DNA of 64,000 nucleotides from an uncultured virus (IMG/VR IMGVR_UViG_3300028048_000070) (IMGVR_UViG_3300028048_000070:1-64000); one strand, 5' to 3'. Shown: positions 2,512-53,200, numbered from the stretch's first letter. Numbers and translations are program-made. Notes: a model not told the origin generated them from the sequence alone.

Positions 2512-2516
2512 ATATA

Positions 2517-2544
2517 ATATAGCATAATACTAGTAAGCGTCATA
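2517..2544 (-). repeat. 28-bp cassette-boundary site, copy 5
   Basis: TATGACGCTTA-CTAGTA-TTATGCTATAT. Confidence 0.95.
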
Positions 2545-2559
2545 GAAAAATATTATTTA

Positions 2560-3084
2560 TTAAGAAAAAATAATTGATTTTATAGTTATATTGCATTCTA
2601 CATATCCATAAGCATTATTTCGAACATAACATTCAAAATTGCAATATGTTGTATTAGTATAAGATGATATATCTATTGAACGAGTGTAAGTCGATGGAGA
2701 TGTAGACGTATGGCAATCACCAGTAGTACCGGCAAGGCTTCCTCCTATATATAAGAAATAGCTTATATCATGGGAATAACCACCACCTGTTATTGTTTCT
2801 GTGAATGTAAGTGTAACAGAATTAAATAAAGAAAAATTAATACTTGTATTTACACTTTTAGGTAAATAGAATGTAACTGTATCATTGCCTATCCATTGAT
2901 TAACAGTTACAGTTGGAAAATAACTAGTAGTAGATGCAAATCCACCAGTTAAAGGATAACTAAAACTACTTCCATTATATCCTCCAACGGGAAATACTTT
3001 AGTACTTCCCCAATATACTGCAGTGCATACTGTACTACCCCACTTAGCAGCAGTAACTGTAGTACTACCTCATTTTATTGCCAT
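2560..3084 (-). pseudogene. KWG-cassette gene with TGG->TGA nonsense at codon 5; close paralog of 146..667
   Basis: ATG GCA ATA AAA TGA (3072-3070) GGT...; 525 nt to TAA at 2562-2560; 3' ~285 nt nearly identical to 146-430; absent from ORF track. Confidence 0.85.
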
Positions 3085-3091
3085 ATATTAT

Positions 3092-3119
3092 ATATAGCAT
3101 AATACTGGTAAGCGTCATA
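3092..3119 (-). repeat. 28-bp cassette-boundary site, copy 6
   Basis: TATGACGCTTA-CCAGTA-TTATGCTATAT. Confidence 0.95.
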
Positions 3120-3125
3120 GAAAAA

Positions 3126-6293: not shown

Positions 6294-7499
6294 TTAATCA
6301 ACTTCATTTTGTGGTATAGGTTTACCAGTTTCTTCATTAGTAAAATAAATTCCATTTCTAAATCCCGTAGTTAAAGCTTCTTCTGCAGTCATTCCAGAAT
6401 TTAATCTATCTATCAAACATCCATTAGACAATCCTAAAATGTATTCCCATTCATTTGTAGTGAGTATAGTTCCATTAAATGTAATATATCTAATAGGATT
6501 ATTTATAGGCGTATTTAAAGCCTTATCAATAGACCATCCTCCTCTTACAACCCTATCATATACTAATTTAGGATTGATACCATGTTCAATAGCAATATCA
6601 GATAAAAATCTTTCTTTTCCAGTATAAGGATCTTTTATTTTTACAATATAATCATTTATAGGCGTATTTAAAGCCTTATCAATAGACCAACCTAAATTAA
6701 TTATTCTATTATATAAATTATAATATTCAATATTATATATTTTTGCCCATTCTGAAATGGTATGTTCTTCATTATTATATTTTATTATTACATTATTTGA
6801 TGTATTATTTGCTTGAACCTCTTGAGTAGTCCATCTACAATTAGAAGGTTCATAATTTCCATCATTATTAATTCTATCAATAGTAAGATCATCGGAATAA
6901 CCATTAGCCATAGCCCAATTATAAAAATTTATAAATCCATTTTCTCCTAACCATTCATCACAAATGGTAATTCCTCTACCTCCATATCTTTTATAATGCT
7001 TATTATTACTATTAAAACATCTATGCTTCATTTTATTATATTTACCATATATCTTAGTATTATATAATCCATGTTTTGTAGATGAATCAACTATCAAACA
7101 TCCACAACTTCTTGTATGTCCATTCCTTAATGCATGCCCTCTAACAATTGTAGTATTTCCACAATCACATTTACAAACCCATTGTGTTTCTCGCCCTGCT
7201 GGACCTATAAAATCTTCTCCTCTTTTTATAACTGTTAATTTTCCAAACCTTTCACCAGTAATATCTTTTAATTTATTAGATTTACATTCTTTACAGCAAT
7301 GCACATGACCATTAAGAAGATTATGATGAATAACTGTAATTTTATTTCCACAATCGCATTTACAAATCCATCTAGGTTCATGTCTTTTAGATGAAGGATA
7401 AATATAATCTTCTCCTCTTTTTTCTACAACAAGTTTATCAAATCTTTCCCCTATAAGATTTCTCCAACCTTTCTTTGTAGAAGTTATTTTATTAGACAT
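6294..7499 (-). CDS. free-standing HNH homing endonuclease
   Basis: two GERFxKL..W.CKCDCGN modules, SCGC, YGGRGITICDEW, LTIDRINNDGNYEPSNCRW. Confidence 0.9.
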   Translation of the reverse strand: MSNKITSTKKGWRNLIGERFDKLVVEKRGEDYIYPSSKRHEPRWICKCDCGNKITVIHHNLLNGHVHCCKECKSNKLKDITGERFGKLTVIKRGEDFIGPAGRETQWVCKCDCGNTTIVRGHALRNGHTRSCGCLIVDSSTKHGLYNTKIYGKYNKMKHRCFNSNNKHYKRYGGRGITICDEWLGENGFINFYNWAMANGYSDDLTIDRINNDGNYEPSNCRWTTQEVQANNTSNNVIIKYNNEEHTISEWAKIYNIEYYNLYNRIINLGWSIDKALNTPINDYIVKIKDPYTGKERFLSDIAIEHGINPKLVYDRVVRGGWSIDKALNTPINNPIRYITFNGTILTTNEWEYILGLSNGCLIDRLNSGMTAEEALTTGFRNGIYFTNEETGKPIPQNEVD

Positions 7500-15035: not shown

Positions 15036-15515
15036 TTAATCCTTTCCAGTTAAATCAACATCAAATCTTATTTCATAATCGGATAATCTATTTATGTTCA
15101 CAGCTTTACCAGAATTTTCTGTAGAGATTGAAATCACCATTGGGAGATTTGCTTTAAAAAATTCTTTCATCATAGGTAATTCACACATTACAAAAAATAT
15201 TTCTCTATATTTTAATAATTCATTTGGTAATATATGAGATTTAAAACTCATCTGTGGTAAAGAAAACATAAATTTATTTTTATCTGTCATTAAAGAATTA
15301 ACAGTTTCTCCAATATGGCTAATACCATAATCATATATCATATTACCAAGCATAGCAACATACAATTCATCTTTTAAATTAAAAAAGACGGGAAATAAGT
15401 TTCCTCCATCCATTTCTGCAAATAGTAATTGAAATTGATCTGCTTGATTAGGATCTATAGAATTTAAATCTCCAAGTGGTACTGACATTTTGCTTATATC
15501 TTTTGTAGTGCTCAT
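15036..15515 (-). CDS. hypothetical protein
   Basis: 159-aa ORF, GGGAG SD, hairpin terminator at 15008-15037. Confidence 0.75.
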   Translation of the reverse strand: MSTTKDISKMSVPLGDLNSIDPNQADQFQLLFAEMDGGNLFPVFFNLKDELYVAMLGNMIYDYGISHIGETVNSLMTDKNKFMFSLPQMSFKSHILPNELLKYREIFFVMCELPMMKEFFKANLPMVISISTENSGKAVNINRLSDYEIRFDVDLTGKD

Positions 15516-15545
15516 TTTATTCTCCCTATAAATAAAAAATAATAA

Positions 15546-15759
15546 TAGGAGAGGGGAGCATTTAACTCCCCACGACTAGCTTGATGGGTATTCTACTCTT
15601 TAGATAGAAAGAGCACCTCTCAGAATTACAGTTAGCTAACATGACCTCCTAATCGTTGGAGTGGACACTGGTCACTAATTCTAAGAGTTTTCTTGTCCAT
15701 ATATGATCAGTACATGGATGCTAATCTCCCTGTGCGTCTATCTCTTCCGCCATCTCCTA
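15546..15759 (-). ncRNA. tRNA-like structured RNA A (acceptor, D and T arms; large insert replacing anticodon arm)
   Basis: TAGGAGA/TCTCCTA acceptor; TG; GCG-GAAGAGATAGA-CGC D arm; GGGGAG-TTAAATG-CTCCCC T arm; insert closed by GATTAGC/GCTAGTC; GC-richer than flanks; no ORF. Confidence 0.65.
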
Positions 15760-15792
15760 TTATTTTAAAGTACATAGTATAATAAATTTTAA

Positions 15793-22140: not shown

Positions 22141-22804
22141 TTTTATTTTCTTCCTCTTTTCTTGAATAATTTGTTCCAATCGGTATAAATTCATTATACA
22201 TAGTAAGATTATTTACATTATCTCTTATATATAAAGCATTATAAGCTCTTGGAGATATATAAATTTTCTTCTGTACAATATCAGTAAGTTCATGATTTGT
22301 AAAAAACTTATAATCTTTTACATAATATACTTCTCTAGAACTTAATGTTCTTTTTTCTTCTGTCTCTATTAATTTATTTATACCAAAAAATCTAGTTATT
22401 TCCTCTGCTTCTAAATCATCTTTCACATATATTCCAGGATTTACTCCTATTATATTAGCCTTATCAAATAGCATAGTAATAAAAGTATTTATCTTTGTAT
22501 ATGTAAGAGATCTATATAAAATATCTTTCTTATAAGTTTCAAAAAAGCTATTATATAATTCATCTATATCTGGTAGATTTTTTTCTGTAGATATGATAGA
22601 TAAAGGATTCCAATTTGTTCGAGAATATAAGAGTGATAGAATTAATCTATCACTCTTATTTAATTCATCTAATTTGAATGCCCGATTATCTTGGAATTTT
22701 TCTCGAATAAATCTAATTAGTCCAATATCTGTATCTACAAGAAAATTAAAATCTATTAATGTAGATAATATTCTACCACTTAGATTTATATTTGTAGTAC
22801 TCAT
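22100..22804 (-). CDS. hypothetical protein
   Basis: 234-aa ORF; LIDFNFLVDTD resembles a degenerate HAD motif I. Confidence 0.7.
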   Translation of the reverse strand: MSTTNINLSGRILSTLIDFNFLVDTDIGLIRFIREKFQDNRAFKLDELNKSDRLILSLLYSRTNWNPLSIISTEKNLPDIDELYNSFFETYKKDILYRSLTYTKINTFITMLFDKANIIGVNPGIYVKDDLEAEEITRFFGINKLIETEEKRTLSSREVYYVKDYKFFTNHELTDIVQKKIYISPRAYNALYIRDNVNNLTMYNEFIPIGTNYSRKEEENKNGKSSSSSTEGIS

Positions 22805-22813
22805 ATTTTTTTA

Positions 22814-23635
22814 TTATCCAAGCTCATCTTCCAAATTAGTGATAGGTTTATATGCATTACGTCCTGTATTGGCTTTATTACCATTGGAAGAAGGTTCAGA
22901 GTATTCATTACTAGCAGAGGAGAAGAATGAATTATTAGATCCTCCTCCACTATTATAATTCTTATCAATAGCTCCTACTTTTTCTCCAATTCTTCTAATA
23001 AGATTAGAACTTCTTGCAGCCTCATATCTACCAATATCATGATAAAAGTAAGCAGCTGCACCAGAAGCATGTCTAGCATAATCTTCAAGAAGATCTTTTA
23101 ACTGATTAAGTTCAAGAGAATCATCATACTCTTTCTTAAATCCAAGTTTAGAAATATCATTAATCTGAAGTAAATACTGATAATTCATATTAAAATTGAA
23201 TCTTTGATTAGATTCATACTGACCATTGGCATTTACTTTAGCAATAACAAGATAAGGTTTACCCATATCTCTACCAATAGCTATCATTCCTCTAGTCTCT
23301 CCAGTACCAGTATCTACGCCAAAGATATTAGAACTTTCAGGATTAGTAATAATTCTATCTACACATGTAGCAAATAATCTAGCCTTTGTAGGTGATAAGT
23401 GAATATATGCTAATTCATTATTTCTACCATCTTGTGCAGTACCAGCCTCAGAAATAGACATTCTAAGAGTACCATTCCAATAATTAAAAGAAAGTCTAAG
23501 ATTATCAACAGGGTTTCTAATAGAAAGTCTAGAATAATAAGTAGGATTATAAAGAGTATTATTCTGATTATTAGAATTAGAATAAGATCTATTATTTCCT
23601 CCCCCATTAGAATTATAAGAACTTCCCAGTGCCAT
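22814..23635 (-). CDS. putative single-stranded DNA-binding protein
   Basis: beta-rich core, N/S/G-rich linkers, acidic C-terminal tip LEDELG; function is inference. Confidence 0.4.
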   Translation of the reverse strand: MALGSSYNSNGGGNNRSYSNSNNQNNTLYNPTYYSRLSIRNPVDNLRLSFNYWNGTLRMSISEAGTAQDGRNNELAYIHLSPTKARLFATCVDRIITNPESSNIFGVDTGTGETRGMIAIGRDMGKPYLVIAKVNANGQYESNQRFNFNMNYQYLLQINDISKLGFKKEYDDSLELNQLKDLLEDYARHASGAAAYFYHDIGRYEAARSSNLIRRIGEKVGAIDKNYNSGGGSNNSFFSSASNEYSEPSSNGNKANTGRNAYKPITNLEDELG

Positions 23636-23679
23636 AATTATTTTCTCCTTTTTAAATAAAATAGTTAATAATAAAGAGC

Positions 23680-23883
23680 AGGTCCTATCTGGATGAGCAG
23701 ATATTAAAAGAAATAATAATTATATTAATAGAGCAGCTATAACGATGAAAATAGAGGAACTCTATGGCAAGAGTTTTATTTTACTATCAAGAAGGTGGTG
23801 ATAGATTCAGTATTTAGCCCCAATATTATATCAATTAACTCAGGATATTATTTCTTTCAGTTTTACACTTAAACTAAGGACCC
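23680..23883 (-). ncRNA. tRNA-like structured RNA B (acceptor, D and T-like arms; extended branched anticodon arm)
   Basis: GGGTCCT/AGGACCT acceptor; TA; GTTT-AAGTGTA-AAAC D arm; 13-bp GAAAGAAATAATA/TATTATTTCTTTT stem; ATCTG-CTCATC-CAGAT T-like arm. Confidence 0.6.
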
Positions 23884-24087
23884 AAAGCTATTATATTAAA
23901 TATAATAATATATATTATATATGCTATCTTAAAAATATTTCTACATAATATTTTTAAAAATACACATTAGGTAATTTTCCTTTCTTATTATTTGGGAAAG
24001 TATATAAACAAGACGGAAATATAATATATAAAATATACTTAATATAATAGTATATGATTGTTAATAAAATATTATTTTTTTATTATA

Positions 24088-24297
24088 TTAAAATTCAGGT
24101 TGAGTAAGTTTATTAGTATCAGTAGAAAGAATAAGTGTTAAGTTATAAAGAGATTGAACTGCTTCTTTTTCTGATACTCTGATATTCTGTACCCCAAGAT
24201 CTATAAAGTTTGATTTCAGATTTACAAATTTAGAAAGTTCTTCATTTGTTTCTTTCATAAAACTTCCTTTAGCCTGGATCGTATCTCCGTCGTAATC
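24088..24297 (-). CDS. rpoC: RNA polymerase beta' subunit, exon 2 (DYDGD...)
   Basis: begins GAT TAC GAC GGA GAT right after intron omega-G. Confidence 0.9.
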   Translation of the reverse strand, partial: DYDGDTIQAKGSFMKETNEELSKFVNLKSNFIDLGVQNIRVSEKEAVQSLYNLTLILSTDTNKLTQPEF

Positions 24298-24638
24298 CAT
24301 TATTATTCATATAGAGGCGTTGAAGTTATCTCTCTTCTATACAGTTCTTTTTTATGAACTTCTTTAAGTTTCCCTAAAGATTAGACTATATCTTCCTATA
24401 TATTAAATATATAGGCATACCCATTTTGAACTCACTTGAGTCCTCAAGAGTTACACTCATCACTCTTTAGTCGTTGAGCTTTCTTCTGTTCTAGAAGCTT
24501 AGTTGCTGATTGTCCAATCTCTAATATTATTACTATACTAAACTCATTACAGTTTACCATTTATATATTCCTATATAAACTTAGTAATTAGAGCTCTAAG
24601 GAGTTTCCAGCAGTTAAGGTATGACAGGCAATTAATTT
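24298..24638 (-). ncRNA. group I self-splicing intron (341 nt, no ORF)
   Basis: P1 AGGU/GCCU with U.G at 5' splice site; P AACTGCTGGAAA, Q AATCAGCA, R TCAACGACTA, S AAGATATAGTC; terminal G; P10 UAAUU/GAUUA. Confidence 0.93.
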
Positions 24639-26225
24639 ACCTCCAAGGCCCTTCAAATATAAATTACTCATCTGCATAGTATCTATAAATTTACTAGCAG
24701 AACTTTGTAAAATATCTTCCATCCTAATCTTAGGATAAAATCTATAATATTCTCCATCTATAATTATAGGTTCAGTTTCTGTAGTACTAGCAACTTCTAT
24801 ACCAGTATAGATAGTATTAAAATAACTATCATAAGGAAATCTAGTAATAGCTACAGTCTTTCCTTCTACTGATCTTACAGCAGCTACATAAATTACATCA
24901 ACCCATGTTAATGGTCTTCTTATAATAGGTTCAGGATTAGTTTCTATTTCTTCTTTAGGATTAGCAAATCTCTTTCCTTTGAACTGCATTAAATATACTT
25001 TATTTGGATCAGCATCTTTATCACTAATAGGAACTTCTATAGGAAGAAATCTATTATCATGAGAATAAACAAATTTCTTTAACTGATCATTTAATATATC
25101 ATCAGTAAAACTTAACATAGCATTATCTATTCTATAATAATGCACATTTCCTTCACTATCTACAACTTCATAATTGGTTACATTAAGAAATTCATTTTCA
25201 AAGAATTTTCTCATATGGAAAATCATAAATGGATAGAAATCTGCTGATACTGCAGCTAATGGCATAGCAGATTTATCTAATGTAACCATTAAATCATCTA
25301 TAGTTTCTTTCTTTAATTCTGGAGCTGATATAACAAGACGGGAGGAATAGTCACTGGTATAACCAGCATTCATTCTAATTAAACCAAATTTTCCGCCTAA
25401 GCCAGTTCCAGGATCTTTAATACTATCATTATTATTACCACAGAACCAATCATATATAGCTCTTAAAGTATCTTGTATTCTAGCACAAGTAGTATCAGCA
25501 ATAGATAAACCATAATCTGCATTGTCTCTTAATGCATTAGCAGCAGTAATGAGATTTACATATAAAGTATTAATCTGACCTACACCAGTATGTTTTTTAG
25601 TAGTATTAGCATCTCTATAATAAGGAGGAATTACTATCCATTTATTAATAAATAAATTCCCCTTTTTAAAGTTATGCTCTATATACTTTATTCTCATATC
25701 TCTAGATCTTGATTCTGTTCTCTTAAATTTAATTTTATCAAAATTAGCTTTAAGCCATTTAATACCAGTTCCTCCACCAGGATCTTCTATAAAAGAGCCA
25801 TCTGCATCTATCTTATATTTTTTTAATCCTTTTATAATAAAATTAAATTTACTATCTAATTTTATTAAACATTTATAACAACTTGGATCAATAAAATATT
25901 CATAAAGATTAATATAAGCAAATGTACCAGCTCTATCTGCTTGAGTAATACCAAATATCTCATTACTTAATAATCCATCTGAAGTAGGAACTCCACCTGT
26001 AGAAAAGAAAGTAGGATTAGTAATAGGTTTTAATTCATTTACCTTGATATATCTTTCTATATCTAATAATTCAAGAGAAAGAATTTCTTTCTTCCCTCTC
26101 TCTTCATAAGAAACTTCATTTAAATTTCTTAAAGAAATATCAGTATCATATTTTGAAAATATTTCATCTAAAGGATCTTCAAAATATCTGAAACCTACTT
26201 CTTCTTCATAAACAAAATCATTCAT
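24639..26225 (-). CDS. rpoC: RNA polymerase beta' subunit (N-terminal/catalytic half, probably virion RNAP), exon 1
   Basis: DGLLSNEIFG, VIPPYYRD, DYSSRLVISA, ITRFP; spliced product 598 aa with LGGDYDGD. Confidence 0.9.
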
Positions 26226-27513: not shown

Positions 27514-27756
27514 AGAGAAATCCTTTTATATATGCAAGCTATTATAATAAGGTTAAAAAGTAAGAAAAATATACCAGTAGGAAAGAGCCTACTGGTAATT
27601 GTTAGATAATTTATCTATTCTATAATCTTCTAATAAACTTTTAGTATATTTTTTATTAAATATAGCCATTTTTTAAAATTATTCCTTCTATTATATATTA
27701 TATTTATAAAAACCATAGATAGGAATTTCCTATCTATGGTTTAATTATATTAAAAA

Positions 27757-44234: not shown

Positions 44235-47200
44235 TTAAAGTGAACTTGAAATAGCATCTAATTTCTGAATAATAGCAGATATATCAGAATTGATATTACT
44301 TACTTTATCCTGATTTTCGATACTAGTAGAATTAGAATTTACTGTAGCAGTAATTCCAGCTAATTTAGAAACAAGATCAACAATAGTAGGCAGTGCAGAT
44401 TCATATTTACTATTCTCTGCAATAATCTTTAAATACTCAAGAATACTATTAAGAGAAGTAGCAACATCATTAGGAGCACTATAATCTATAGAATGATTTA
44501 CAGCTCTAGATGAAGTTAAAGAATAATCAGAACTATTATTTGTTTGCCTAGCTATATCAGCTGCAATTAAAGGATCTACTTTATATTTTTTAGTATTTTT
44601 GTTTTTAGATGATTTTGTAGCTCCGCCTATAGGAGTCCAAAGACCGGAACCAGCAGCAGTTTTATTCATCATTGATCTTATAGCTTCATTATCAGCTTCC
44701 CAAGATTCAGCAGCTTTGCCATATAATTCATAATATCCGCCTTCATAGTCAGGCCGTCCAAAACCAGTAAGTTTATTGGCTAGAGTAGATCCATCTCCTA
44801 TCTTAAAATGATGTCTTGCAACCATTCCACCATTACGATTATATTCATTACCACTACCAGTATTTCCTTCTATGGTATGAATAGTTCCATCAGGATCAAC
44901 TTTTTCTACTAACCCGATATGAGAAGCTTTATTATTTGTAAATATTACAAAATCTCCTGGTAAAGCATCTTTTTCATAAAATGCTCCTGCTTTTTTAAAT
45001 TGATTTTTAAATGCTGTAACACCTACTTGCACAGGACCTCTAAGAGCTATATCTCTAGCTTTTGCATTACCATTATAATTTTTATCCATTAACCATGATA
45101 CAAATGATGCACACCATGGTTCCTTATCATAACCAGTAAATTTACCATAATCAGTAATATTACCTGAATTTGGTTTTCCATATGAACTATCATTTGGATC
45201 GTTGCATACACCACCTTCTTCGACACCAAGTTGAGATCTAGCTATATCAATATAACTAGCAGCTGTTCCCTTTCCTGGTGGGGTTGGTAAAGCTTTACCA
45301 GGTTCTAAGTGCTGCATACGATGAAAATCTCCAGCAGATCCTGAAGCTCCACCTACAAATTTATATAATGGTAATCCAGAACCTGAAGCAGTAGCTCCAC
45401 TCCAATCAGGTCTACCAAATCCAGTGAGTTTTTTATCCATGGAACTTCCATCGCCTAAAGTCCACTGATGTCTAGCAACAACACCACCATTACGGTTAAA
45501 TTCATTGCTAGATCCAGTATTACCTTCAATTGTAGAAATCTGTTTTCCATTAACAGTTTCTACAATACCAGTATGAGAAGATCCATTTTTAAATATTACA
45601 ACATCACCAGGTTGAGGTTCATTTGTCATTGCACCAGCACTTTTGAAATTATCCCAAAGACCTGATACAGCAGCAGAAATGTTTCCTTTTAAAGCTTTAT
45701 TTCTAGCAGTTTTATCACCATTAAATGTTTTATCCATAACCCAGGATACAAATGAAGCACACCAAGGTTGCTTATCCATTCCCATAAATTTACCATAGTC
45801 TGTAATATTACCAGAGTGGGGAATCCAGTTACCACTCTTATCTTTTTCACCAAGTCCACCTTCTAAAACACCAAGTTGAGATCTAGCAATTTCTATCATA
45901 GAATGAGGAGTACCATAACCAGTAGGATAAGGTTTTGCATGTCCATCATCTCTATCATCATAATCATATTCACTTGATGCACCAGCAGCTGATTTACCAC
46001 CTATATATTTATATAATGGTAATCCAGAACCAGTTCCAGTTGCTGTAGTTGTTGATGAAGATGTTGATGGCTGTTCTGTAGTATATCTCTTAGAAAGAAT
46101 ATATCTTTTTGCATCACTATTAGCATCAGTTACAATAGGTCCAACTCCAGAGCCATGACCAGCTCTTTTTCCTTGACCCATATACATCTCTACGTGACCA
46201 ACTCTATATTTTCTTCCAGAAGAAAATCCAGAAGTAGGTCTTGAATAAAGAAGTAAATCACCAGGTCTTAATCTATCAAGATTTGGTCCTGATGAGGTTT
46301 GCTGTAATGGATCACCACTTGTATATTTATCAACAATTATACCATTAGAACTATCTAAAATTTCTGGTGTAGAACCACCAGGATTAACACCAATCGAATT
46401 TTTAAGAACCCATTGAACAGTAGATGAACAGTCTGAACTTCCTTTAGATGGATCTCTTGCACCACTCATAGAATAATGAGATGTACCAAGAATAGAATTC
46501 ATCTTTTGCACAATAGCATTCTCTTGTGTAGTATTGCCACTAGATGTTGCTACGCCACCAGAATTTGATGATGTATCAGCTGTTGTTACGCTTGCATCGC
46601 CATTAGATTCAGTTCCAGCATTAGCTCCAAGACTAAATCCACCTGTAATAAGTTTAAATATACTTGCAGCAGTTCCACTAAGCCCTTTTCCAACAGCTTG
46701 AAATACTTTACTGAATGCACTACTAAGAATACTAGAAAGATTAGTACCTCCAGGAGCTCCAGATGAAGCAGCTGCTGCAGAACCTTGTGCATTACTACTA
46801 CTATTAGAAGAATATCCAGATGGGGCTGTTACATTACCAGAAGCATCAATTTCATAATGAGCTTCTCCATGTTTCTGACGCATTTCATCAGAAATATATC
46901 CAAATGGATCAGATTTATCATCCGGGAATAATGAGAATTTCCAATCTGAACCATATACATTTTTGATAGGCATACCAAGAGTATACATAGATCTATCTTT
47001 AGCCCAGCTTGGTGTATTTTTTGCTCTTGCTTGGAATCCCATTCCCTTAGTGAGTCCAGTAGATTTTCCATTAATTATTGCTAAATCAGCAAAACAATCA
47101 TGTTCATCTACATATCTAGGTAAAGTTCTTTTACCATTATTAAATACATCTGTAGCAGCAGCAAGAGCAGAAGGTTCAATTTTAGCACTACCATTAAATC

Positions 47201-50200
47201 CTTCTTCATATCTTGTTGCTCCTTTAGCAAACCAGCCGCCTTTAAGATGTTTAATAAGGTTTTCTGCATTAGCCCTACTATCATCTTTCATATCAACTTG
47301 GTTTGCCATTAATGATGCTTCTGCATATCTACCTTGAATTCCACCTTGCTCATTCTGAATAATATTAGCAGCACCTTTTAATTGTTGCTCACTAAGATTA
47401 TATTTCGGGAATTCAAGAACAGGTCCAGAAGCTGTACTAGAAGATGAAGTACTTACACCTGCAGTTGTTGTTCCAAAACTAGTATTAGCTGGAGGATTAG
47501 CAGAAAACTTATTTAAATAAGTTTCTCCATAACTCTTTCTTGTACCAGTCTGTTTTTGCCATTCAGAAGGACTTTCAAAATCTTTAAGTACAAGATCAGA
47601 TGCTTCTTGTAAATTATTAGTTGTAGTAAGAGTTTTATATACTCCAGGATATTTATTTTTAAGCTCATATACAAGATATTCTAATTGCGTATTAGGATCT
47701 GCTATAGATACGCCTTTAGATTTAACAAGATCATACAATCCTTCTTTTCTAGAAGGAGATGTCCATTGAACAAGTCCATAGCCATATTGATAATCTTTAC
47801 CACTACTATTTTTATCTGGATATCTTGGATGTAAGAAATGAGTTTTATCTAAAGTACCATTATCAATAGCAGCAGTATAAGATTCATCGGTATAATTACC
47901 TTTACCTGTTTCTCTTAATCTATTGGCACAAAGCTTTTCTAATTTATTAAAAGTAATTCCAGATTCACCATAAAGATTACCCATTAATCCAGCTGTACCA
48001 GCATCTGTAAGTCCAGCAGATTTAAGATAATTCCATACAGCACCATCAGATTCTTTAACTGGATTACTACCACCACCAGTAAGTATTCCAAGTTTAGCAT
48101 TATTAAGAATCTTTTTATTATATACAGTAGGAGCTCCTAATTCTGGATCATCAATAAGTATATTTCCTCTTGAATCAGATCCTCTAGCTACAACATAATG
48201 AGGATTTGGTCCAAATGGAGAATTTACTTTAGATTTATTAGATCTATCCTGTCCAAGTAATATAGTAGGATTACCTGACCCAACAGCTCCTCTAATAGAA
48301 TTTTTAGAATTAGTATAAGAAGTTCTAATTCCATTTGCTCCTAATATATCAGAGAAATAAGATGCTCTTGTACCTACACCAGAAGATCCAGCTACATATC
48401 CACCAGCTTCTGCCCAAGATACGGCATCATCAAGATTACCACCTCTACCATATGCTCTAAGCACAGTAGCAGCAGTAGCAGGACCACAGCCATTTTCATC
48501 TACATTAGAAGAACCAAATTTTCTATTAGAACCTCTTTGGGTAACATGAATGCCAGATCCAGTTCCAGTAACAAAGTTTTTAACTGTTGTAGCAGCATCA
48601 TCTACTATAGTTGTAGCGGTATTCCAACCACTAGATACTTTATTACCAACCCAATCTACTTTATCTTTACCCCATTCTATAGCATCTCCAACTTTATCGC
48701 CTATGAAACGTATAGCTCTTACAACTTTAAGAGCCATTTCCATAATTCCACCAGTAAGAGATACTATACTATTATTAATACCAGAATAAATATCTGAATT
48801 ATCTTTAACTAAGAAAGATTCTACAGTAGATTTATAAGTACTAAAATCTTTAGAATTATCAGAATATTCCCAAAGTTTAGATACCACATTTTTAATATCG
48901 GGAATAGAGCTTTTAGCTTTTGTAAATATTTCACTAATTTTATTTCCTAATGCATTTATAGCTGTAGGAATTAAATAACTAAATTTATATCCATAATTAG
49001 CTATTGTAGATATTACTCCAGTTTCACTACCAGCATCAGAATTATCAGAAGATATTAATCCTTTAAGATCTCCTGCTATCATATATTCTCTAGTAGCTTT
49101 TCCAATAGCACCAATATTATTAGCTTCTTTTACTACAAATTCTGCTACAGATTTTATTCCGCCTACAATCTTATGACCTATAAACGAATATACTGTAGGC
49201 ATAGTAAGAGCAGCTGAAGTTGCAACATTAGCAGCTGTTGATACAACTCCAAAAGGATTATCTTCACTTACTGTAGATTTATTTGTCCAAAGACCAACAA
49301 TATCTCCAGATTTAAAAGAATCAATATTTTGAGATACGGTATCCCCAATATCTTGAGCGATAGTTCCAGCTATTTCAATATAGGGTTCAATTGCAGTTTT
49401 AACTTTATTAGCTAAATCTTTTATAGAATTTCCAATCTTAATTCCTGTATATTTTATAAATAAACCAGGAACTATAGCTACTTTAGCATTATTAGATATA
49501 GCATTTGTAATTCCATAAAGAGGATTATCTTCCTTGATTTTAGGTTTAACATTAATAACATCACTCATCTTAGAAGATCTATTTATAAATACTTTTTCCA
49601 TATCACCAGCAAGACCAGTGACAGCAGTTATAGCTTCTTTTAAGTAATCTTTTCCTTTAGCTAATTTATTTCCTGCAGCAGCTATTAAGTTTTTAGCACC
49701 ATTAGCAACTCCTGTACCAAAATTCTTAATACCTTTTATAGCTTTAGATCCTGCAGATTTAACAGTAGTAACTGCTTTAGAACCTAAATTTTTAGCTCCT
49801 TTTGCAACTCCAACTCCAAAATCTTTTACTTTACCAATAGTACCACCAATAGCCTTTTTAACTTTTTCTTGTGTTGTATATTCACCAAGTTCATTATGAA
49901 CATATTCTTCAAGAGTAGCTCCAGGATTATTAGTAGCTTTTCTATATTCCTCAAGAGTAATCTTAGCTTCAGCTCTAGCTTTATCTAATCCACCAAGATC
50001 AACTCCAAATTTATTAAATACCCAGTATAATACATTAAATAAAACTTCAGTAGGTATAAGTCCTCCAATTCCGGGAATAGCATAATTAATAGCATTTAAT
50101 GCAGCTGCCAATAATCTTTGAGGAATTGTGGGATCTATAGTAATGCCAAGAATAACTTTTGCTCTAGGTTTTTCAAAACCATCTTCAAGAGCAAGAATAA

Positions 50201-53200
50201 TTCTTCCTATATATACAACAGTACCAATAGTACTTAATAATTTGCCAAGACTAGCACCACCATTTTGTGCAATAGCTTGACCTGCTGTTTCTGCAGCTTC
50301 ATCTGCAGCAGCTCCAGCTTGTTTTATACCAAGTTTATTAAATACCCAGTTAAAGATACTTTTAAGTCTATCAGCTATAGTAGAAATAAGACCATTATCA
50401 GCTACATCTGTTAAGAAATTAGTAGCTCTTTTTCCAAGATATTTCTCCGAAAATGATCCAAATACGGAACCACCTTCACCAGTAGTAAGTTTAGTGGCAC
50501 CTTTCTTAACAAATTCTGAAACTTTTGGAAGATTAGACCCTAATTTAGAAGCATATTTCATAGGAGCAGCTAAAGCTTTTCCTACAATAGGAATATTTCC
50601 TACAGTACCTCCTACTACTTTAGCACCTATAGATCCAATTTTCCCACCAAAAGCCATTCCAGAAACTAAATTAAAACCAGTAGTTTTAATTCCTCTGTCT
50701 ACAGCATAATCTGATACAAAATCATCTTTATCATAAGCAAGCATATTACGATTTCTAATGACATTTTCTACATCTTTAGATCCATAATATGCTCTTTCTA
50801 AAGGATTCATATCTTTACTACTTTTAAGAGTAGAAAGATCTATACCTTTACGAACTCTAGAGTCTTTATCTGTTCCTTCTAACTTATCATGAGCTTTATT
50901 AAATAACCATCCAAGACCAACAGCAGATAAAGCTGTAGCTAATCCACCACCAGTAATAAATTCTCCAAGGCCTTTAGTAATAGCTCCACCGATACCAGAA
51001 AGGGCTCCAGATAATCCACCACCAGCAAGATTACCAAGTAAACCACTTATAGCACTAGTAATAGGAGATAAAAATCCACCAATAGCACTAGCGGCTCCAC
51101 CAAGTAATTTCTTTAATTTATCAAATATTGTTTCTTTCTTTTCTTCTTTATTAATACCAAAAATTCCTTTAAGACTTGTAAGAAGACCTCCACCAAGAAA
51201 GAAATTATAAAATCTTGTTCTAAGATTTTTCTCTTCCTTTTCTTCATTCTTCTTATCCTTAGTTTCTTTATTAGATAAATCAGGAACCCATTTACCACCT
51301 CTAAATTCTTCATTTTCTCCAGTGGTAGGATTCTGTCTTGTATCTCCTTCTTTGGGCCCAGAATTTTCAGAAGATTTACTTTCTTCACTAGGAATTTTTG
51401 TATTTTCTTTAGCTTTATCAAAAGAATTTTTTTCAGGTAAATTAACTCCAAGATGTTGAGCAATAGCTTTAACAGGAGTTAAAATATTTTCAAGAATAGT
51501 ATTTCTTTTATCATCAAGAGGATGTTCATTTTTATCTTGCTCTATTCTATCTGCAAGAGTTTTATTTTCATCTTGTATCCATTTCTCTCTATCATTTTCA
51601 CTAATTTTTCTTAAATCAGCATTTGTCTGACGTCTTAATTTAAGTAATTTTTTATCGCTAAGCTTACCAGATAATCCTCTAAGATCATAACCTTTATATT
51701 CATCCTTAGAGAATTCTGCTTCTTGAGCAGCTCCCCAATTATCTAATTGATTATATCTTTCATTAAATTCTGCTTGTTTTGCAGTAAGTAATTTAATAGC
51801 TTCTTCGGCTCTTTTATTAGTTATACCTTTATATTTACCAGCTTTGATATCAGCTATTACTCTACTATAGTCTGTATGCTGAATACTCTTTTTATTAAAA
51901 CCAATACCAACTTTAGTAGTTGTAGTAGCTCTTCGCATAGCTGATCTAAGAGCATTAACAATTTTAGGATCAGCAGCTCCACCATTATCTAATGTAGCTA
52001 CCATAGTATCTGCTAAATCTTCTCTTTGAGAAGCAAGAGCTTTTCTAGCATTCTTTTCACTATTAGCATAAAAATGTACTCTTTGTACAAAATCTTTAGC
52101 ACCTTTAATATTTCCAGATGTTTCATATGCTGCTAAAGTTTTATCATAATCGGTAGCTTTATCTCCCATTGCTGCTACTCTTTCGGCAGCAGAAGCAGAA
52201 GAATAACCCATCTTTATATTATGTCTATTAAGAGCATCACCAAGCCCACCAATACCTTTAAATGGAAGAGCTGCAAGTTTTCCACCAAAAGTTAAGGCTT
52301 TATCTCCAGTGAATCCAATAGCTGATAATAATCTACCAATAGTTTTATTAAATATTTCTCCAATATTTCTTCCGATACGATGAATTATAGATTTTATTCC
52401 ACCTGTAACTTCATCAAGCATTTTAGTTCCCTTACCTTTAACCCAATCGGTAAGAGGATCAAAAAGTTTCTTTACATTTGTAAATATAGTATTTTTAAAG
52501 AAATCTTTTACTTTACCTATTCCAGTCTTTACATAATCAGCTAAGGGATCAACTACTCTAACTTTAAGTGAACCAATGATACCACCACGGCGTTTTCCAT
52601 CTACACCTTCATTTCCAAATAATGCAGAAGATATGAATTCTTGTACTTTTTCTTGATGTGCAAGCATATCAATACCAGCACCAAGTACAAAACCACCAAG
52701 AAGTCCTCCAGGAGCAATACCCATAGCTCCTAATACTGATCCTATAGCTCCAGATTTGGTAAGTTTAGGTAATCTCTTTTTAATAAAATTAGAAACTTTA
52801 GGAGGAAGCATTCCTCCCTTACCTTCTTCATCACCAAAAAGTTTTTTAGATATATCATCAGAGTTCTTTAATACATGAACTCCAGCACCAATAGCAAATC
52901 CACCAAGAAGTCCTAATCCAGAACCAGTCATAGCACCAGCAATAATAGCTCCAATAGTACCAGAGGACATAGTTTGAGGAAGAGACTTCTTAATTACTTC
53001 CATTGCAGATTTAGCAACATCTTTACTATCTTTATATTTCTGCCCAAAAGCATTTTCTAAAGACTCATCAATTTGTCTACCTGCATTAATTACTTTCTTA
53101 CCAATTTTACTATTTTTTGCATTATCATATAATTCTTGTTGTTTCTGCTTTTTTAATTTTGCTTTATATTCAACAGATTCTTTTATCTGATTAACTGTTG

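Follow-up and report, generated by a model that had tools for sequence, protein, structure and literature searches.

RNA B and its surroundings

We analyzed the first 64 kb of a 135.8-kb virus record from IMG/VR (IMGVR_UViG_3300028048_000070; completeness rating approx. 50%), i.e., a stretch of 64,000 nucleotides (nt) referred to below as the window. Positions 23680-23883 of its minus strand carry a 204-nt element, here called RNA B, which is shaped like a transfer RNA (tRNA) with a long arm in the anticodon-arm position and which lies between a gene for an RNA polymerase beta-like subunit and a gene for a protein with a predicted Whirly/PUR fold. Sequence comparison with relatives confirmed that RNA B is real, conserved and under selection, since the same architecture is found in the same place, with compensatory changes, in related rumen-phage contigs, which takes the case beyond chance. 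The features at the locus are as follows.

24088-26225, minus: upstream gene, RNA polymerase beta-like subunit, in two exons (24588-26225 and 24088-24300)
24047-24062, minus: AACA-N6-TA-type motif AACAATCATATACTAT, just past the stop codon of the upstream gene
23680-23883, minus: RNA B, the whole tRNA-shaped element, 204 nt, read directly and folded
23877-23883, minus: 5' strand of the acceptor-like stem, GGGUCCU, pairing with 23680-23686
23860-23874, minus: D-like arm GUUU-AAGUGUA-AAAC, preceded by U8 and A9 and followed on its 3' side by a single U
23706-23858, minus: long arm in the anticodon-arm position, a 13-bp stem with a branched 127-nt insert
23687-23705, minus: AAU linker and T-like hairpin AUCUG-CUCAUC-CAGAU
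23680-23686, minus: 3' strand of the acceptor-like stem, AGGACCU; the next bases are GCUCUUU, with no CCA
23636-23679, minus: AU-rich spacer with the Shine-Dalgarno sequence (SD) AAGGAG of the downstream gene (23645-23650)
22814-23635, minus: downstream gene, 273-amino-acid Whirly/PUR-fold single-strand nucleic-acid-binding protein (predicted)

Every tRNA-like part that a first-pass annotation of this DNA had described was found on the minus strand at the coordinates listed above. The extended 13-bp stem in the anticodon position (GAAAGAAATAATA/TATTATTTCTTTT, 23846-23858 with 23706-23718, one G-T pair included), which that annotation had claimed together with two inner hairpins, was likewise read in the sequence and seen in the minimum-energy fold, which gives the layout including the hairpins CTATCA/TGATAG and AACTCT/AGAGTT.

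Conservation and compensatory changes among relatives

A large protein collection held 103 relatives of the downstream 273-amino-acid protein, whose alignments were used for fetching the corresponding loci. RNA B was found in two of the 12 IMG/VR loci, i.e., a contig identical to the window (287.9 kb) and G001, a complete 274-kb genome whose locus is designated L004; seven of the other 10 loci were read (L007, L008, L011, L012, L014, L015 and L016) and showed spacers of approx. 100-190 nt and no RNA B. Among nine metagenome loci, two duplicate the contigs just named, four carry RNA B (L059, L060, L061 and L065, the last identical in RNA B to L060), and one (L064) carries a 118-nt version recognised by eye. 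There are thus six distinct versions, five of them beyond the window (L004, L059, L060, L061 and L064). In all six, 44-62 nt separate the 3' end of RNA B from the same gene's start codon, a position also kept in a relative with just 47% identity in the flanking protein. L064, whose score with the covariance model described below is low, was assigned to the group by where it lies and by two motifs in common with the others, UAGUUUAA and CUCAUA.

The minimum-energy fold reached the layout independently in four of the five homologues; the G001 copy (54066-54276) showed it by its own fold with a z score of -3.28 (1 of 200 shuffles equal). The acceptor-like stem is paired in 42 of 42 cells over the six versions although six of its seven positions vary, with double changes at positions 1, 2, 4, 5, 6 and 7 (GGGUCCU/AGGACCU, UGGCCAU/AUGGCCA, GAGUCCU/AGGACUU, UGGCCCU/AGGGCCA and UGGUGUA/UACACCA). 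The T-like stem is paired in 30 of 30 cells, all five positions being changed somewhere, and the D stem GUUU/ARAC persists, a single U-A pair having become U-G (the D arm of L064, with a loop of 6 nt, was assigned by eye). In the long arm, the first six pairs are kept in the homologues, the stretch from the D arm to the variable loop ranges from 73 to 160 nt, and the inserts have only AT-rich low-complexity 7-mers in common, with no sequence motif.

A covariance model built from five sequences (R1) found exactly one strong copy per phage genome, scoring 120.9 bits in the 135.8-kb record and 104.1 bits in G001; when 20 sources were searched under default filters, the copies in the window and in L004 went unlisted, and both were recovered with the filters off. 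In the model-fitted alignment of the five sequences, 98.0% of 99 cells pair as compared to 88.5% in shuffles (0 of 500 reach this value), the covariation score is 0.390 as compared to 0.201 (0 of 500) and seven pairs change on both sides (reached by 7 of 500). When the pairing partner was slid by 1-3 columns, only 29-61% of cells paired, with 0-1 both-side changes. Two R1 matches of 19-20 bits in the genomes of five relatives lie antisense to a coding region and were set aside as chance. Similarly, the 3' shell pattern CTTTTAAYATCNGCTCAT matched 32 stretches in IMG/VR, of which two are real (the identical contig and G001) and the others chance or coding.

The shape in a single genome

Within one genome, the shape is not beyond chance and the single-genome case is weak. 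The fold of RNA B has a z score of -2.17, and 5 of 200 dinucleotide shuffles fold equally well; it is conservation in relatives that speaks for the RNA described in the first-pass annotation. Structured spacers are common in the 135.8-kb record, as 13 of 30 scored intergenic gaps of at least 120 nt reach z <= -4 (mononucleotide shuffles).

A loose cloverleaf-with-insert descriptor produced hundreds of matches in AT-rich DNA and was discarded for a strict descriptor, composed after RNA B had been seen. With the latter, RNA B was the sole match in the 135.8-kb record and the homologous site the sole match in the related genome. The genome-wide scan that had been suggested for RNAs of this type therefore returns a single site, yet block-shuffled copies average 0.39 matches, with at least one match in 7 of 28. 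In phage DNA of 27% G+C, a cloverleaf-like layout alone is no evidence, and comparison with relatives alone settles the matter.

How closely RNA B resembles a tRNA

All six versions keep tRNA spacing, i.e., a 7-bp acceptor stem, a 4-bp D stem and junctions of 2, 1, 3-4 and 0 nt. In standard tRNA numbering, none of the six departs from U8, A14, A15 and A21, from a single G in the D loop or from C56-A57, which are positions that build the elbow of a tRNA; A15 stands opposite U48 in five versions and C48 in one, so that position 48 is a pyrimidine throughout. The acceptor and T-like stems stack to 12-13 bp in all six (T-like stem of 5-6 bp), and the T-like loop has the consensus NNCAUNN, in which CAU is invariant (6 of 6) and which differs from a canonical T loop. 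In all versions, the sequence past the 3' acceptor strand is U-rich, and CCA is encoded in none.

The anticodon position holds 6-13 or more contiguous pairs around 59-148 nt rather than a 5-bp stem with a 7-nt loop, and no consistent U33-anticodon-purine37 loop could be read at the fifth stem pair. As RNA B has no anticodon loop, no CCA and no call by a tRNA detector, we regard it as a tRNA-shaped RNA that is unable to decode; judged by its sequence, it is neither a tRNA that decodes nor one with an intron, nor is it a transfer-messenger RNA (tmRNA). A tmRNA likeness was rejected because position 3:70 is G-C in all six versions; ARAGORN reported no tmRNA, and the insert was not systematically searched for a reading frame. 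The Y RNA-like YrlA, whose ends form the Ro-binding stem around an internal tRNA-like module, was also set aside, as the ends of RNA B form an acceptor stem and its long arm is closed by loops, and there was no Rfam match; no search for a Ro/TROVE gene was made. The G+C content of RNA B is 24-32%, as compared to 48-62% for the phage's own tRNAs.

The T-like loop of L004 (CUCAUAA) equals the anticodon loop of the phage's own tRNA-Met, and the T-like hairpins of L059 and L004 match the anticodon arm of that tRNA at 13 of 17 positions (the corresponding hairpin in the window is 23687-23702). Pairing of the CAU loop with the start-codon region was considered and rejected, since only UCAU/AUGG is common to all versions and there are no compensating changes. 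In L064, a canonical tRNA-Gln lies 222 nt upstream of RNA B on the same strand.

Promoter-like motifs and the leader of the downstream gene

The early-type promoter motif that the first-pass annotation had placed approx. 20 nt upstream of RNA B is present, as TATATTAT is found 22-29 nt upstream, within ATATATATTAT at 23905-23915. However, it is not enriched in the window (three copies of the 11-mer as compared to 1.85 expected; 31 of 100 shuffles reach three), so that its role as a promoter is unsupported. For phage AR9, PMC5312081 gives an early promoter consensus of AAATATATATTAT-(6N)-G and a late one of AACA-(6N)-TA/G. Applying the AR9 spacing from ATATATATTAT, transcription is predicted to start approx. 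15 nt before RNA B. The motif AACAATCATATACTAT past the stop codon of the upstream gene matches the AR9 late consensus (PMC5312081), and a motif of the AACA-N6-TA type is also found past the upstream stop in L004, L060, L061 and L065; by this analogy we infer a putative late promoter here. Despite the conserved position, the full 16-mer shows no enrichment in the window, and sigma-70-like sites in the window are no commoner than in shuffles.

The SD of the window is predicted to pair (P approx. 0.9) with CUCUUU directly 3' of RNA B, and a similar pairing is predicted in L064; in L004, L060 and L061, it is not, and the SD there pairs weakly or not at all (P = 0.1-0.5). Leaders of the downstream gene often carry the anti-SD-like motif CACCUCC or CUCCUU, with predicted SD pairing. 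CACCUCC resembles the 3' end of 16S ribosomal RNA. Two loci whose protein is 59-60% identical, L062 (668-975) and L063 (1175-1432), have different, G+C-richer leaders that fold at -86.7 and -80.9 kcal/mol; there, the predicted pairing partner of the SD is CACCUCC or UUCUCCUU (P = 0.85-1.0). CACCTCC occurs only four times in the 135.8-kb record, counting both strands, and is present in three of nine distinct leaders examined (L060/L065, L061 and L063); near-copies lie within the RNA B insert of the window (23792-23800) and of L004. Some leaders have the anti-SD-like motif within the insert, others ahead of RNA B on its 5' side.

The genes on either side of RNA B

The AlphaFold2 model of the downstream protein (mean predicted local distance difference test score 69.8; core blocks 77-92) shows a core of two beta-beta-beta-beta-alpha repeats, disordered ends, including the N-terminus, and a short acidic C-terminal helix. 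The top Foldseek matches in PDB were PURA, StWhy2, WHY2/3 and the Trypanosoma brucei proteins MRP1/MRP2 (E = 1.5e-4 to 2e-3), the last of which are guide-RNA-binding look-alikes of the downstream protein. A protein atlas agrees on a Whirly/PUR-type fold, which we take as a lead only. From the model, the product is thus predicted to have a fold that binds single-stranded RNA or DNA. The protein has no Pfam or PHROG match, tblastn against GenBank phages found none, a scan of GTDB genomes found no relative, and no PDB chain sequence matched its profile significantly (best E = 0.16).

A Whirly-fold protein is also known from nucleus-forming jumbo phages, i.e., ChmC, which binds single-stranded RNA at 58 nM as well as phage messenger RNAs (mRNAs), is very abundant and is encoded beside non-virion RNA polymerase genes (PMC11077065). 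The downstream protein and ChmC (PhiPA3 gp61) share the Whirly fold, a length of approx. 250-270 amino acids and a place beside multisubunit RNA polymerase genes, one of which is intron-split. Unlike these features, the sequences show no similarity (hhalign probability 0.35% with a 47-sequence profile), and we therefore did not file the downstream protein as ChmC.

The upstream gene is covered by PHROG 2986 at positions 9-483 and 484-534 in its two open reading frames (ORFs), which are separated by a 287-nt group I intron (24301-24587, minus). This intron scores 46.7 bits against Rfam Intron_gpI (E = 6e-11), i.e., below the gathering score of 50. The counterpart in G001 is a single unsplit ORF of 603 amino acids without an intron. 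In L060 (approx. 30-190) and L061 (approx. 942-1020), the ORF upstream of RNA B ends in ...GFITGP(M/L)I; in L065, although its RNA B is identical to that of L060, an RNA polymerase beta C-terminus lies upstream. The upstream gene therefore differs in some genomes. A blastn search of 22800-24600 against GenBank phages gave short, low-coverage matches only.

Possible functions of RNA B

The pattern of constraint is that of a tRNA whose top half is fixed while the arm in the anticodon position is free in length and sequence. On a tRNA, the top half is where RNase P, RNase Z and the CCA-adding enzyme make contact, and because this is the part conserved here, we infer processing by host tRNA enzymes. 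Tentatively, and at somewhat short of an even chance, we thus favor the reading that RNA B is a non-decoding tRNA mimic in a 5' leader that acts as a cut-here module for these enzymes. Host tRNA-processing enzymes would take RNA B for a pre-tRNA; RNase P would cleave at its 5' end (approx. 23884/23883) and a 3' endonuclease past its acceptor strand. A long phage transcript would thereby be severed between the RNA polymerase gene and the downstream gene, which would set the 5' end of the downstream mRNA and free a stable tRNA-shaped RNA of approx. 120-210 nt. If RNA B is such a processing signal, giant phages with their own RNA polymerases would punctuate long transcripts by means of host tRNA enzymes.

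A number of observations weigh against this reading. The T-like loop lacks the U54-A58 pair in all six versions, has U55 in four of six and is 6 nt long in the window, and position 1:72 is G-U or U-A rather than G-C. ARAGORN called no genes in the window or in the 135.8-kb record as a whole, whether or not introns of 0-300 nt were allowed, and lowering its score threshold to 80% did not bring up this site; Rfam matches were absent at gathering score, and none of tRNA type appeared when E was relaxed to 10. RNA B is remote from tRNA genes, both in G001 (five tRNAs at 362-1525, RNA B at 54066-54276) and in the window lineage. With regard to conservation, the five-sequence alignment, being fitted to the model, leans to its structure, and its further pair types show no excess (10 as compared to 11.0 in shuffles); L064 scores only 16.4 bits with R1 (E = 0.31), below two chance-level matches, and its minimum-energy fold has no D arm. 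RNA B is also dispensable, as R1 finds none in five genomes whose downstream homologue is 51-52% identical; three leaders read among these are only approx. 130 nt long. No terminator-like site lies between RNA B and the downstream gene, which leans to co-transcription of the two, and RNA B is most likely on the same primary transcript as that gene. Finally, the constant site 44-62 nt upstream of one gene is explained equally well by a leader that stays uncut.

Such an uncut cis-regulatory leader, which would confer stability on the mRNA or control how it is translated, perhaps through binding of the downstream protein, is the main alternative; we consider it possible but doubtful. The tRNA likeness would then be incidental or a protein-binding shape. 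The leader of T4 gene 32, for comparison, binds gp32. Consistent with this alternative, all six versions of RNA B immediately precede the same gene, and no terminator-like site intervenes. The predicted SD pairing with the RNA B trailer in the window and L064, the other strongly folded leaders with a predicted paired SD in the 59-60% identical relatives, and the recurrence of the scarce CACCTCC in leaders of this gene agree with it as well. The single-strand nucleic-acid-binding fold of the downstream product also fits, as ChmC binds phage mRNAs (PMC11077065), although the downstream protein has no sequence similarity to PhiPA3 ChmC (hhalign 0.35%). However, an uncut leader leaves unexplained the invariant junction spacing and elbow nucleotides amid an otherwise variable RNA; moreover, L004, L060 and L061 show little or no SD pairing (P = 0.1-0.5), and leaders differ as to whether the anti-SD-like motif falls within RNA B or outside it. 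Cleavage at RNA B and regulation through the leader are combinable, as processing could itself be the regulatory step.

The conserved top-half features and the fast-evolving arm would also suit a trans-acting decoy, i.e., a released RNA that occupies a host factor recognizing the tRNA top half (a tRNA-targeting toxin or a tRNA-modifying or -binding protein) or that scaffolds the variable arm. A tRNA scaffold reportedly stabilises inserted RNA in bacteria. RtcB-type ligases repair cleaved tRNA, and the window's phage record encodes one; RtcB is absent, however, from G001, which has RNA B. As there is also no anticodon loop for anticodon nucleases, CCA is not encoded and a CCA-adding enzyme gene was not found in either phage genome, the complementarity of the insert to the phage's own genome amounts to AT-rich low-complexity matches of at most 17 nt, and each genome has a single copy, we regard a decoy as unlikely. 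Slightly less probable still is the idea that the shell serves as an address tag, recruiting host tRNA machinery or the phage Whirly-fold protein to sort, export or license a very highly expressed mRNA, with the long arm as a payload (e.g., an anti-defence decoy co-evolving with the host) on a nuclease-resistant tRNA scaffold. That RNA B might be a functionless decayed tRNA gene or a chance fold is suggested by the 0.39 occurrences of the architecture expected per shuffled genome, the z score of only -2.17, the many relatives without RNA B and its being passed over by tRNA detectors. Compensatory changes nevertheless keep four helices paired over six versions with almost unrelated acceptors, the position is conserved where the flanking protein is only 47% identical, and a G+C content of 24-32% is unlike that of the phage tRNAs (48-62%), which makes this explanation improbable. 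A group I intron 400 nt away and the location of the insert at the anticodon arm might point to an intron-interrupted tRNA gene from which splicing yields a normal decoding tRNA. Against this, a search of 23400-24200 at E up to 10 yielded nothing for Intron_gpI with the library that detects the neighboring intron at 46.7 bits, ARAGORN with introns allowed finds nothing, the flanks at the fifth pair (AAAUAAU.../...UUAUUAUUU in the window, AUUAAUA... in L004) give no consistent anticodon loop, and the L059 insert folds largely into stacked AU-rich helices; we consider an interrupted tRNA gene highly improbable.

Comparison with known RNAs

Since the T4 era, phages have been known to encode tRNA-like RNAs that do not decode, and these still await an explanation; going by its sequence, we would place RNA B among them as a variant. 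The T4 RNAs rnaC and rnaD ("species 1" and "species 2") are small stable RNAs encoded beside tRNA genes, whose roles are stated to be unknown (PMC3014915). Like RNA B, they are phage-encoded and non-decoding, with lengths of 119-139 nt, and rnaC has a tRNA-type hairpin beside its closing helix as well as large extra arms. Unlike RNA B, rnaC keeps a canonical T arm (CCGGGUUCGAAUCCCGG) and sits inside a tRNA gene cluster, whereas RNA B is AT-rich, has the NNCAUNN loop and is located in an mRNA leader far from tRNA genes (L064 with its tRNA-Gln at 222 nt excepted); no sequence relationship between the two was seen.

The mascRNA of MALAT1 is a tRNA-shaped element in a longer transcript in which cutting by RNase P and RNase Z separates two RNAs. 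If RNA B is indeed processed, it would resemble mascRNA as a tRNA-shaped cut site that parts two RNAs; mascRNA differs in being eukaryotic, small and without a long arm, and there is no homology. The T4 gene 32 pseudoknot and the tRNA-like Escherichia coli thrS operator are translational operators in the leaders of the nucleic-acid-binding proteins' own genes, and RNA B is similarly placed upstream of the AU-rich ribosome-binding region of a gene for a predicted nucleic-acid-binding protein; the thrS operator, however, mimics the anticodon arm, which is the part that RNA B lacks. With its clean compensatory evolution, defined gene partner and highly variable arm, RNA B offers a concrete system for phage tRNA-like RNAs as processing signals, regulators or decoys.

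A second conserved RNA in the window

RNA A (approx. 15545-15760, minus) lies 8 kb from RNA B, has a G+C content of 36-45% and ends approx. 30 nt upstream of the ORF 15036-15515. Its fold has a z score of -3.20 (0 of 200 shuffles equal), while that of the G001 copy is -1.44 (15 of 200 equal). RNA A is conserved in G001 with compensatory changes in the closing and T-like stems, and its 5' part GAUGGCGGAAG..AUAGACGCA is nearly invariant between the two genomes; on these sequence grounds, RNA A is a real conserved RNA. A pattern for its motifs matched two stretches in IMG/VR, both from the same two genomes, and its 3' part weakly resembles Rfam cow-rumen-4 (RF02948; 24.1 bits as compared to a gathering score of 48.5, E = 0.088).

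The first-pass annotation had ascribed the same architecture to RNA A and RNA B, which does not hold in a strict sense. RNA A has 7-8 unpaired nt between the D-like hairpin and the long arm and a closing helix of at least 9 bp, its junctions are not tRNA-like, and it is recovered neither by the strict descriptor nor by R1. As to the further proposal that two RNAs of approx. 210 nt define a class, both are conserved, but a single class that includes the two is conjectural. If the tRNA shell were an address tag as considered above, RNA A and RNA B would belong to a broader class of natural tRNA-scaffolded phage RNAs.

Source of the DNA and other features

Runs containing the 10 kb around RNA B are labelled as bovine gut metagenomes, and contigs from RNA libraries held 64-90% of the words sampled from the same 10 kb. 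The window has a G+C content of 25-35%. Pfam and PHROG matches to its genes include RNA polymerase beta-like pieces, a GroEL-like chaperonin, a primase and a major head protein; by these predicted functions, the gene set marks a giant phage with its own multisubunit RNA polymerase. Outside the window, at 96528-97565 (minus) of the 135.8-kb record, a 403-amino-acid frame matches RtcB-type RNA ligase (162.8 bits); RtcB was not found in G001. The intergenic gaps 2512-3125 and 27514-27756 have fold z scores of -6.1 and -7.4 (mononucleotide shuffles), the former (614 nt) giving no Rfam match at E up to 0.1. An HNH endonuclease is encoded at 6294-7499 (minus; strong PHROG matches), and 44235-55994 (minus) encodes a protein of 3919 amino acids with tail lysozyme, CHAP, NlpC/P60 and C39-like peptidase domains.

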